In this document: piece by piece, positions 803 through 12,220 of the stretch | How the letters are laid out: the number at the start of each line of letters is the position of its first letter | Numbering within the stretch: position 1 is the stretch's first letter | From: a virus | Taxonomy: Duplodnaviria > Caudoviricetes | DNA length: 64,000 bases | Reading direction: 5' to 3' (one strand) | Virus record (IMG/VR): IMGVR_UViG_3300031857_000001 | The notes under the pieces: model-generated | The model's input: only the letters and a program-made list of their open reading frames with translations | The model's database searches: none | What the model was told of the DNA's origin: nothing | Made by a program: the position numbers and the translations under genes

Positions 803-1042
803 AAAAAACCTTATATCGATAAAACTGATGAGACAAGAAATCAGGTAATTAGAGATATGTTTAATACCAATAAAAAACCAATTACAAAAATGAAATACAA
901 TAACAACACACCATTTGAAGAATTTATGTACCGTTTTGCGGTTGTATTTGGTATCACTGTAATAACTTTAAATCTAATTATTTTGGTTTTAAAGTTGATA
1001 GGTTAAGGTTTTTATCGTATATTTGTAGAAGTTATTTGAAAC

Positions 1043-4717: not shown

Positions 4718-4754
4718 CCGTATATTTGTAGAAGTTCTTTGAAATCATTTAAAG

Positions 4755-8062: not shown

Positions 8063-8398
8063 ATGATGGAGCAACACTTGGTTACAATTCTCGTTACACT
8101 AATAACGGTTTTAACTTCAAACGCGGCTTGGAAATATTATGAGAAAAGAATGTTGTTGAAGCAAAGGCAAGAAGAGAATCAACACAAAGATGGGGAACTT
8201 TATAGAGATGATTTAAGAGAAAGAATTGTTAAATTAGAAACATTACTTGACGAATCATCCAAAGAAAAAGATAAGATGAGAGAAAACATCATCGTATTAA
8301 CCACTTCACTCTCAAGATTAGAAGTCGAGGTGGATTTCTTAAGAAAAGAAAATGAAAAGTTGAGAGCAGAAAATCAACTTTTAAGAACTAGAGTATAA
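8063..8398 (+). CDS. single-TM coiled-coil protein
   Basis: N-terminal hydrophobic segment then heptad-rich region; late motif at 8023-8031. Confidence 0.7.
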   Translation: MMEQHLVTILVTLITVLTSNAAWKYYEKRMLLKQRQEENQHKDGELYRDDLRERIVKLETLLDESSKEKDKMRENIIVLTTSLSRLEVEVDFLRKENEKLRAENQLLRTRV

Positions 8399-9114
8399 TG
8401 ACAAATTTTTCTTACATAACAAATACCTCTAAAGGTAGAATAACATCCCCTTTTGGTAATAGGGTACATCCTACATTAGGTAAGGTCAAAAAACATTCAG
8501 GATTAGATATTGCTCACCCCACAGGAACTGAAGTACTAGCAATGACCGACGGAGTTGTCATTCAAAGTGAAATGGCAAATAACGCTTGCGGTGGTACCAT
8601 TGCAATAGACCACGGAATGGTTGATGGAAAAAAGCTTAAAACCAGATTTTGTCATAATAGTAAATTACTTAAAAAAGTAGGGGATAATGTTAAAAAGGGT
8701 GAGGTAATTGCGATTTCTGGAGGTGGTAAAAATGATGTTGGTAGAGGTCGTTCGACAGGCCCCCATATTCATTTTGAGGTATATGAAAACGGACAAACAG
8801 TAAATCCAAAACCATATTATGATGGCTCAAAATTAGGAGTGACACCCGATAGTGAAAATACGACTGATTCAGATACTACTAAAGTTTCAGGTAAAGAAGA
8901 TTTACCGACACCTGATGAGGATGACGAACAACAAATGAGTCCTGAGTTATCTAATGCTCTAAAAACTTTAACTCCGGACTCTAAAGGTCTTGATGTGTTT
9001 GGTGGAAAATTGGACCCTTTAATGAAAGGGTTTGAAAAGGCGTTTGGTCAATTTGGTATGAATTCTATCGTTAAAGAAGATGTTGATAGAATTAAAAATT
9101 TGATGAATCTGTAA
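8398..9114 (+). CDS. M23 family peptidoglycan endopeptidase
   Basis: ITSPFGNR, HSGLD (HxxxD), STGPHIHFEV (HxH) motifs; acidic linker; C-terminal EDVDRIKNLMNL. Confidence 0.9.
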   Translation: MTNFSYITNTSKGRITSPFGNRVHPTLGKVKKHSGLDIAHPTGTEVLAMTDGVVIQSEMANNACGGTIAIDHGMVDGKKLKTRFCHNSKLLKKVGDNVKKGEVIAISGGGKNDVGRGRSTGPHIHFEVYENGQTVNPKPYYDGSKLGVTPDSENTTDSDTTKVSGKEDLPTPDEDDEQQMSPELSNALKTLTPDSKGLDVFGGKLDPLMKGFEKAFGQFGMNSIVKEDVDRIKNLMNL

Positions 9115-9126
9115 TTTTTTTACGAT

Positions 9127-9398
9127 TTTGCTTGTTTGGTGAGTATTTATCCTTATCTTTGTAAAAGATTTGACACCTACAGGTGATGAAAGATACTCGG
9201 AAAGTTAAATCTAAAAAAAAACTACAAATAAATTTGGTGAAATGAAAAAGTCACCATATATTTGTAAAGGATTTGAGACGGACAACGATTAAGATACAAG
9301 TCTCGAATCTTAAAAAAAGTTTAAGAAAAATTGGAAGATTGAAAAATTTGACTTAAATTTGTAAAACAATTCGGGAATGACCGAAAAGTTCTTTGAAA
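9127..9398 (+). promoter_or_regulatory. three tandem host-type promoters plus boxA-like element
   Basis: TATCTTTG 9154, TATATTTG 9257, TAAATTTG 9354, each with upstream TTG/TTTG; GTTCTTTGAAA 9388-9398. Confidence 0.7.
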
Positions 9399-9404
9399 GA
9401 TTTT

Positions 9405-10190
9405 GGGCCGTGTATGGTCCTTTAAAATAAACTACGAAAGTAGGATAAAGTGGTCTCCCCCGTGTTAAGGAGACTGCGGCTTCAGAAATGGAGCTCGAGT
9501 ACACAAGTGGGATATCACAAGACCTTTAGTACCGAGGGTAACACTGTAGGGAAAGTGGAATTGTGACCTGGGAATGTGGATTCTCAAGTTGAGTTCGGAA
9601 GAACAATAAGAATAACCCATAGGAATCAAGTAAGAAATGTGGCTTCCAACTACAATATTGCGGATTCCAATACCGAAGGGGACTTAAAACCGAAAGGTAA
9701 GGTGGAGAACGAGTGGTGTCGCTACTACCCCTAAAGATGACCTACCAAGGTCTCTTTATGAAGTAATCTGAAAGTATGGAGATAGGGATATCTCACGGAG
9801 TAGTTTAGTATTCCGTCACCCAAAAGGAGGCGGAGCTTACGGTGGACCACTACTCTGACACATCCACGACACAAATCTTAAATTATGAACAATAATTAAA
9901 GGAAAAGTGTCCATCACGGTACAACGGAAGTTGCCCACATAGCTTAGAGATGTTCTGAGCATAGTGAGACCCCAAGTTGAACTATATTTTTACGAAAAAC
10001 CTCTAATCTCGCAAGGATTAATTGGGAAGGCATTCTCGAAGAGAGCTGAGTAGTAAGAGAGTAGTTGTATCGTCAAGGATTGATTGGCCTTACCAATTGG
10101 CAATGAGTAATACAAGACAAAATCTTGTGGATAAGAGTAGAAAAAATAATGACTCTAAAGGTACTCAATCAAAGCTGTAATCTCAGGCTT
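9405..10190 (+). ncRNA. giant ornate ncRNA, GOLLD-like (~790 nt)
   Basis: No long ORF, raised GC, many stems (GAGTAGT/ACTACTC, GGTGGAC/GTCCATC, GACAC/GTGTC, TAATC-TCGCAAG-GATTA); 3' hairpin AAGC-TGTAATCTCAG-GCTT whose CTCAG can pair with CTGAG at 10046-50; tRNA-rich phage context. Family call is from recall, not a covariance-model search. Confidence 0.65.
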
Positions 10191-10192
10191 AG

Positions 10193-10876
10193 TTAATTTA
10201 TCTTACAACCTTTTTTAAGGTTATCCTCCTTCCATAATGGCTGTAAATTTGTATAATGAGATAATTTATATATTTCAGTTTCATCTTTAGCCGAAGACAA
10301 GGGGATTATATGGTCAATATGCCACTCGTGTCTATTTGACCAACTCATACCCAATACAAACTGATTTTCTAAATGTTCCAATAGTTGTTGGGGAGAACAA
10401 CCTATAATTTCAAAAGTTTTACTATTTTTCTTATAACCTTTAGTTTTAAGAAAACTATTCATCCTATTCCTAAGATTTATTGATAGTCTAAAAATTACAT
10501 CTTGTTGATATTTTTCTTTTCTTTTATTGTAAAATAAAATTTTATTTTTTATCCTCCAAGGAATTGAAGGCTCTTTTTGTTCTACTAATACATTTTCTTT
10601 ATTTATTTTTAATTTTTCTCTATAACTTTTACTTCGTTCATTTTCTTTTTCCTTATTTTTTAGGTAATAAATTCTAAAATTTTCATTTAGTTCTTCTCTA
10701 TGTTTTTCTCTGTATTTTTTTGAATAACCATTAATAATCTCTTTGGATTTTAGTTTTTTTATTTTTTTGGAACATTCAGAGCACTCACTCCTGAAACCAT
10801 CTTTGGAGTATTTGTTTTTTTGGAACTCATTAGTATTTTTTTCAATACTACATTTACTGCAAATCTTTTTTGTCAT
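10193..10876 (-). CDS. HNH endonuclease with N-terminal CxxC-CxxC Zn motif
   Basis: CSKC...CSEC; C-terminal WHIDHIIPLSS...HYTNLQPLWKEDNLKKG; ATG at 10876 preferred over the track start 10900. Confidence 0.85.
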   Translation of the reverse strand: MTKKICSKCSIEKNTNEFQKNKYSKDGFRSECSECSKKIKKLKSKEIINGYSKKYREKHREELNENFRIYYLKNKEKENERSKSYREKLKINKENVLVEQKEPSIPWRIKNKILFYNKRKEKYQQDVIFRLSINLRNRMNSFLKTKGYKKNSKTFEIIGCSPQQLLEHLENQFVLGMSWSNRHEWHIDHIIPLSSAKDETEIYKLSHYTNLQPLWKEDNLKKGCKIN

Positions 10877-11009
10877 AATAATCCGATAATAATTTTTCAA
10901 TTAATTTTGACTTATTAATAATATCACCTTCTAATTTATTATTAATTTTTTGACTAAGAGTAATTGATATTTTAACTCTTTTTTTTGTTTCATCTAATCT
11001 TGGTCTCAT
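10854..11009 (-). CDS. ribbon-helix-helix DNA-binding protein (51 aa)
   Basis: Manual translation MRPRLDETKKRVKISITLSQKINNKLEGDIINKSKLIEKLLSDYYDKKDLQ; alternating beta strand then two helices; late motif at 11014-11020. Confidence 0.6.
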   Translation of the reverse strand: MRPRLDETKKRVKISITLSQKINNKLEGDIINKSKLIEKLLSDYYDKKDLQ

Positions 11010-11123
11010 AATAATAAATATCCGTAAAAAAAGTAAAATACCGATTTTTTAAAAAAAAATTGACAAATGTGAATATTATTAGTATATTTGTGTTGTTATA
11101 TATTTAATTTATAACTAATACAT

Positions 11124-11196
11124 TGTGGAAGGGAGAAACAGATTCCTCGTCAGTCTCATAAGCTGAAGACATCCGGTGCAACTCCGGTTTCCGCAA
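11124..11196 (+). tRNA. tRNA-Met(CAU), atypical
   Basis: TGTGGAA/TTCCGCA, TCAGT-CT-CAT-AA-GCTGA, CCGG-TGCAACT-CCGG; promoter 11083-11090. Confidence 0.8.
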
Positions 11197-12146: not shown

Positions 12147-12220
12147 ATATTTCAAATAACGTGATACAAAGATATAAATAGTTTATCGGTATTCCAAGTA
12201 TTTATATAAAAAGTTTTTTA

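Follow-up and report, generated by a model that had tools for sequence, protein, structure and literature searches.

To our knowledge, GOLLD is among the largest bacterial and phage RNAs without a known function, and we know of nothing on its synthesis in cells. The structure of its protein-free cage has been solved only recently.

The 833-nt GOLLD RNA of env-38 was found by cryo-EM to form a D7 14-mer nanocage (Kretsch et al. 2025, PMC12286853 / 10.1101/2024.12.08.627333), in which the 5' domains form the caps and the 3' domains the rings and which assembles without protein (10.1101/2024.12.08.627333). The GOLLD RNA of Streptococcus agalactiae, of 700 nt, is a dodecamer without P9, P11a-c and P21b, and cage stoichiometry differs among GOLLD RNAs, being 10, 12 or 14 (PMC12990946). 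The family is thus already published, including its cage and its association with phages and tRNA genes (10.1101/2024.12.08.627333, PMC12990946), as is the protein-free octameric cage of ROOL, a large and ornate RNA that is likewise associated with phages and tRNA genes (10.1101/2024.12.08.627333). Leaders of bacterial rRNA operons (rrn leaders) carry tandem promoters and the elements boxB-boxA-boxC, and are served by a Nus/SuhB/S4 antitermination complex (PMC10250234, PMC5725501). The gamma-proteobacterial boxA consensus is GYTCTTTAANA, and the boxA of E. coli is inactivated by the joint mutation C4T/T6C (PMC5725501).

In the 64,000-nt stretch of phage DNA analysed here (the window), we identified at positions 9405-10189 of the plus strand the gene for a full-length GOLLD RNA of 785 nt, in which a canonical 5' domain is followed by the conserved 3' domain; its membership in the family is as good as certain. 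The locus as a whole is very probably best explained as the full-length GOLLD of a large phage, with a proposed rRNA-style leader and a proposed cage. The window copy is an ordinary new member of a known family, and the rRNA-style leader is the only part of this picture that we did not find in print: among the 10 top-ranked papers on boxA, antitermination or Nus in combination with GOLLD, none mentions GOLLD, which is no proof of novelty. The features of the locus are collected in Table 1.

Table 1. Positions in the window of the GOLLD gene, its upstream signals and neighbouring features.
Feature	Position	Strand	Basis
Promoter word 1 (TTG-N19-TATCTTTG), Bacteroidota sigma-A type	9132-9161	+	Pattern scan
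Small hairpin module 1, then A-run	9166-9212	+	Fold -8.7 kcal/mol, z = -2.2; kept in L015
Promoter word 2 (TTG-N19-TATATTTG)	9234-9264	+	Pattern scan; 79% identity in LR745206
Small hairpin module 2, 12-bp stem, then A-run	9268-9311	+	Fold -14.3 kcal/mol, z = -5.0; alignment
Promoter word 3 (TTG-N20-TAAATTTG), closest to GOLLD	9331-9361	+	Pattern scan
boxB-like leader hairpin (TTCGG / CCGAA)	9370-9385	+	Fold; hairpin kept in relatives
boxA-like word GTTCTTTGAAAG	9388-9399	+	Word scan; relatives; Bacteroidota rrn leaders
GOLLD 5' domain (cap-forming in env-38)	9405-9795	+	Alignment; covariation; words common to env-38 construct
GOLLD conserved 3' domain	9796-10189	+	Rfam RF02032, 298.3 bits
Variable A-rich linker inside GOLLD 3' domain	~9858-9905	+	Part of RF02032 match
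Pseudoknot 5' strand GGAU (partner AUCU, 10180-10183)	10129-10132	+	Pairing in 32 sequences; covariation
Terminal loop L27 (GUAAUCUCAG)	10177-10186	+	Rfam match; alignment; covariation
HNH / endonuclease VII-like gene, convergent on GOLLD	10193-10900	-	PHROG 1035, E = 2.7 × 10−20
tRNA, anticodon CAU, own promoter word at 11060-11090	11124-11196	+	Rfam tRNA, 35.1 bits, lax filters
GTTMTTTGAA copy before tRNA-Leu	1031-1040	+	
GTTMTTTGAA copy before RNA cluster	4734-4743	+	
GTTMTTTGAA copy before tmRNA	12151-12160	-	

Identity, fold and surroundings of the GOLLD RNA

A scan of the whole window with Rfam, the check named in the original prediction for its assignment to the GOLLD family, matched GOLLD (RF02032) with a score almost twice the gathering score (298.3 vs. 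150 bits, E = 2.5 × 10−84). The match spans model positions 1-416 of 416 with high posterior probabilities, and is the only strong non-tRNA Rfam match in the window. Because the Rfam model holds the conserved 3' domain only, the 5' half was delimited by comparison with relatives. A three-way alignment with the phage records LR745206 and LR756502, together with wider relatives, shows that conservation starts at approximately 9403-9405 and ends at 10189, and the env-38 construct begins at the homologous GGCCG, in agreement with the originally predicted ends of 9405 and 10190. The resulting length lies inside the GOLLD range of about 700-850 nt, with the less conserved 5' domain first. The prediction of an ORF-free, stem-dense region was likewise borne out: no ORF longer than 64 aa is found on either strand between 9115 and 10192, and the minimum free energy of the RNA is -217.6 kcal/mol compared to -193.2 ± 7.9 in shuffled copies (z = -3.07).

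The nearest GenBank relatives by blastn are LR745206 and LR756502, records of uncultured phages of 634,780 and 642,428 bp, both of which carry a syntenic GOLLD (287 and 275 bits, respectively). A search for further relatives used the 5'-domain words GGATAAAGTG and GAGCTCGAGTA, both invariant, and retrieved 66 IMG/VR viral contigs. A scan of genome contigs found the same words in two short MAG contigs only, one of Saccharibacteria and one of Flavobacterium; both are probably binned phage DNA and are therefore a weak host clue at best. We obtained 46 full-length copies of 769-848 nt, of which the closest (L015) is 88% identical to the window copy and the remaining ones are 59-76% identical. The 5' domain of the window RNA could be aligned to 45 full-length relatives.

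Covariation was assessed in 32 sequences below 95% identity. RNAalifold yielded 182 consensus pairs, 136 of them with compensatory changes on both sides, where it should be kept in mind that the relatives share phylogeny and that counts across them, here and below, are counts of non-independent events. The covariation term contributes -49.9 of -184.6 kcal/mol. The consensus includes long-range helices (e.g., alignment columns 8-13 with 114-119, and 294-308 with 459-474), so that the predicted long-range pairings are backed by covariation, and the RNA has the secondary structure of a GOLLD. From an all-against-all covariation scan, which is noisy for any single pair because the sequences are related, only helices of multiple pairs were used. 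Loop L14 has an invariant CAAAA among the relatives, and L21a reads GCAAG, as in the window, in 27 relatives and TCGAA in 9; a GC/CG switch in the L21a palindrome has been presented as evidence for a bridge of the cage (10.1101/2024.12.08.627333). Outside the nested consensus fold, a long-range pairing of TTGCC (9931-9935) with GGCAA (10099-10103), in which 2 of the 5 pairs covary, probably corresponds to a known GOLLD pseudoknot.

The terminal loop L27 pairs with J24/26 in this RNA, in agreement with the pairing seen by cryo-EM in env-38 (10.1101/2024.12.08.627333). The two strands, GGAU and AUCU (Table 1), are paired in 100% of cases (128 of 128 cells in the 32 sequences), one position switches between U-A, A-U and C-G with double-sided changes in 10 sequences, and none of 500 shuffles reached the pairing score. 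The terminal pseudoknot had been predicted with a different partner for the loop, CTGAG at 10046 with CTCAG at 10182. These two words are indeed present and complementary in the window, but as a conserved pairing they were rejected: double-sided changes number 0, and 3 of the 5 pairs are broken in 8-11 of the 32 sequences. Among the relatives the 3' word CTCAG is nearly invariant, and the 5' word CTGAG varies without compensation.

Phage genes flank GOLLD on both sides, and five tRNAs and a tmRNA lie within 9 kb of it, plus the further tRNA-CAU of Table 1. The latter, at 35.1 bits against a gathering score of 29, was missed by ARAGORN and by the default Rfam scan; its T-loop (UGCAACU) and D-arm are unusual. 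Its homologue in L015, a tRNA-Met, comes directly after GOLLD at a distance of 18 nt; in the window, the HNH gene lies in between. Comparison with L015 further shows that the flanking genes are 93-94% identical and that leader and GOLLD together (9112-10194) form one module with 89.8% identity. The breakpoints of this module are sharp, at 9112 and 10194, and the M23 peptidase gene at 8398-9114 is located elsewhere in L015. No intrinsic terminator was found after GOLLD in the window, where the convergent HNH gene adjoins the 3' end.

The position of the HNH gene, which abuts the 3' end of GOLLD at 10193 and splits GOLLD from the tRNA-Met adjacent to it in L015, could be taken to indicate a decayed remnant, broken by the insertion of its neighbour and no longer expressed as a defined RNA; this is highly improbable, given that the Rfam match is of full length with high posterior probabilities, that every position invariant in the 32 relatives is retained, that the leader is intact, and that the module breakpoint at 10194 falls beyond the last base of GOLLD.

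The leader and its likeness to Bacteroidota rRNA leaders

Upstream of GOLLD, a pattern scan identified three promoter words, spaced by approximately 100 nt (Table 1), corresponding to the triple promoter of the original prediction. The pattern TTG-N19-20-TAnnTTTG, which is the promoter word of Bacteroidota, occurs 17 times in the window, compared to 3.6 ± 1.9 occurrences in shuffles, and TAnnTTTGTAA occurs 11 times, compared to 3.9 expected; promoters of the sigma-70 type showed no enrichment in the window (21 vs. 16.6). Further promoter words are found ahead of tRNA-Leu, tRNA-CAU and the tmRNA. With the -7 box of the third word at 9354-9361, transcription would start near 9367. Among 53 distinct GOLLD upstream regions, 28 contain at least two sense promoter words, and 52 contain no antisense word.

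The first two promoter words are each followed by a small hairpin module and an A-run. Neither module matches Rfam, and with relaxed thresholds positions 9100-9420 of the leader gave only a chance-level snoRNA hit (E = 0.93). Two distant huge phages, LR745206 and LR756502, retain the loop of hairpin 2 (ACGATTAAGATACAA) on a different stem. The boxA word described below follows the third promoter unit only, and units 1 and 2, which are without it, may produce small hairpin RNAs of their own instead. On this view taken to its end, each of units 1 and 2 would be a small-RNA gene in its own right, made up of a promoter, a hairpin of ~45 nt and an A-run, and unit 3 alone would drive GOLLD. We consider this a possible but rather unlikely arrangement. 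In its favour, both hairpins fold better than their shuffles (z = -2.2 and -5.0), the loop of the second is kept while its stem changes, neither unit has a boxA word, and within 450 nt no more than one promoter word is found in 25 of the 53 relatives; against it, no terminator follows either hairpin, so that read-through into GOLLD is expected, the same tandem layout is found in host rrn leaders, 28 of the 53 regions have at least two sense words and 52 have no antisense word, and 9112-10194 is kept as a single module in L015. Tandem promoters for GOLLD remain our preferred reading.

The boxA context of the original prediction corresponds to the word GTTCTTTGAAAG, which sits five bases 5' of GOLLD. 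In the form GTTCTTTGAAA, it matches the gamma-proteobacterial consensus at 10 of 11 positions, the mismatch being a G for A at position 8. The order of the leader elements, from the -7 box through the hairpin and the boxA word to the start of GOLLD at 9405, is the same in the relatives, in which the stems at the hairpin position change (e.g., ATCGG/CCGAT, ATCAG/CTGAT and GTCAC/GTGAC) and the boxA word typically lies 34-36 nt downstream of TAnnTTTG (start to start), beyond the changing hairpin. The 150 nt upstream of GOLLD contain GTTCTTTGA in 53 of 70 related loci, compared to a background rate of 0.011 per 150 nt. In an independent set of 84 GOLLD loci, chosen by a 3' word alone, the boxA word is present in sense orientation in 28 and in antisense orientation in 2. 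Five loci (L001, L018, L026, L048 and L051) have a hairpin and then the boxA word, and the 45 nt inspected upstream contain no promoter word, as fits a signal acting at the RNA level and not a part of the promoter. Relatives with longer leaders of 55-100 nt (L003, L005, L016, L023-L025, L034, L044 and others) share ATTATCCAT just after boxA; this word is absent from the leaders of the window and of L015.

The related word GTTMTTTGAA occurs 4 times in the window, compared to 1.2 expected, and all four copies lie directly before an RNA, namely tRNA-Leu, an RNA cluster, GOLLD and the tmRNA. The three copies other than that of GOLLD start 5-6 nt after a TAnnTTTG box and end 2-10 nt before the RNA (with the noted cluster start of 4750 used for the RNA cluster), with no hairpin between. 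Those before tRNA-Leu and the tmRNA read GTTATTTGAA, with an A at position 4, which counts against a boxA reading because position 4 is one of the two that were mutated together in the inactivated boxA of E. coli.

These copies bear on a different interpretation, under which GTTCTTTGAAA would be a processing or maturation signal of phage stable RNAs (a site for an RNase or a phage protein) and not a Nus-binding boxA, and the likeness to rrn leaders would stem from the use of that signal in the processing of host rRNA precursors as well. A position 2-10 nt before tRNA-Leu, the RNA cluster and the tmRNA is where cleavage of a 5' leader would be expected, and the A at boxA position 4 in 2 of the 4 copies also fits this interpretation. 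We nevertheless regard it as unlikely: the distance from the word to the 5' end of GOLLD varies from 17 to 100 nt, a poor fit to a cleavage site, the word has 10 of 11 matches to the published boxA consensus, and a Flavobacterium rrn leader has GTTCTTTAACA, a perfect match to this consensus, at the equivalent place. We prefer to read the word before GOLLD as a boxA.

We further compared the leader to the rrn leaders of Bacteroidota. Among 25 sampled rrn leaders, 12 contain the exact word GTTCTTTGA before the 16S gene and 22 contain a relaxed form of it, and in none is it found in antisense orientation. The exact word is absent from the four leaders of the genus Flavobacterium that were examined, which have GTTCnTnGA variants. 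In Flavobacterium rrn leaders (L186, L189, L192 and L193), 3-4 tandem TAnnTTTG promoters lie ~100-120 nt apart, each with a hairpin and then a GTTCnTnGA word behind it; one of these words is GTTCTTTAACA. The Flavobacterium rrn leaders thus consist of a repeated promoter-boxA unit and do not have one boxA per operon. The rRNA-like expression signals of the original prediction are found here as tandem promoters, hairpin and boxA that match the rrn leaders of Flavobacterium and Bacteroidota, and, as far as can be judged from sequence, the promoter-hairpin-boxA layout of GOLLD is conserved and identical with that of rrn leaders of the host phylum.

A proposed mechanism for GOLLD synthesis

Under the mechanism that we propose, the large phage would have a Bacteroidota host, and its GOLLD gene, which lies near tRNA and tmRNA genes, would be transcribed from up to three tandem promoters of the host type. 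The nascent leader would present the hairpin together with the same boxA word as in many Bacteroidota rRNA leaders. This word would recruit host NusB/NusE (S10) and convert RNA polymerase into an rrn-type, Rho-resistant complex, which would let the long untranslated RNA be completed and folded during its synthesis. We consider it about as likely as not that the boxA leader acts through Nus factors. The completed RNA would assemble without protein into a closed multimeric cage, by analogy with env-38, and we consider a cage-forming GOLLD in this phage to be probable on that analogy; its stoichiometry cannot be read from sequence.

As a working guess, the cage might have a role in the takeover of translation by the phage, since the tRNA and tmRNA genes near GOLLD are preceded by the same leader word. 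A more far-reaching and speculative proposal, which we hold to be improbable as it stands, is that the phage hands GOLLD to the rRNA machinery of its host, that the Nus/SuhB/S4 complex is needed, as an RNA chaperone, for folding and assembly of the 14-mer cage, and that the numerous boxA leaders, at GOLLD, tRNAs and tmRNA alike, may also divert Nus factors from the rRNA synthesis of the host during infection. The conserved rRNA-style leader leads to a concrete, testable hypothesis, namely that it would secure bulk synthesis of GOLLD and protection from Rho, and that the antitermination complex of Nus factors would possibly also fold the RNA.

Comparison with rRNA leaders and cage RNAs

Compared to a bacterial rrn leader, the GOLLD leader has the same tandem promoters spaced by approximately 100 nt and the same succession of hairpin, boxA word and long structured RNA that is not translated, and its boxA word is that of Bacteroidota rrn leaders. 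It differs in its cargo, which is a phage RNA and not rRNA, in that no boxC was identified in the GOLLD leader, and in that inspection by eye revealed no complement of the leader after 10189 and no leader-trailer helix. Leader signals are not discussed in the text of the env-38 paper (PMC12286853) as far as it was searched.

ROOL is an RNA of the same kind, large, ornate and associated with phages and tRNA genes, but its sequence and fold are unrelated to those of GOLLD, and the Rfam scan found no ROOL match in the window.

The env-38 GOLLD and the window RNA differ in length (833 vs. 785 nt, with a shorter linker here), and their sequences diverge outside the conserved words. They share the two-domain build and a similar size, the two hairpins at P21, the CAAAA in L14 and the pairing of L27 to J24/26, and both come from environmental, aquatic metagenomes (marine in the case of env-38) and are associated with tRNA-Met. 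In the 5' domain, which was compared by words only, they have GGATAAAGTG, GAGGGTAACAC, GTTGAGTTCGGAAGA and CAATAAGAATAAC in common; together with the start of the env-38 construct at the homologous GGCCG, these shared words identify the 5' half of the window RNA as the canonical 5' domain, as in the GOLLD with the solved cage. With the S. agalactiae GOLLD, the window RNA shares the family and the conserved 3' domain, whereas it has both P21a and P21b in the Rfam alignment and the host phylum is a different one. Its two P21 hairpins and its env-38-like 5' words place the window RNA closer to the environmental type than to the S. agalactiae GOLLD.
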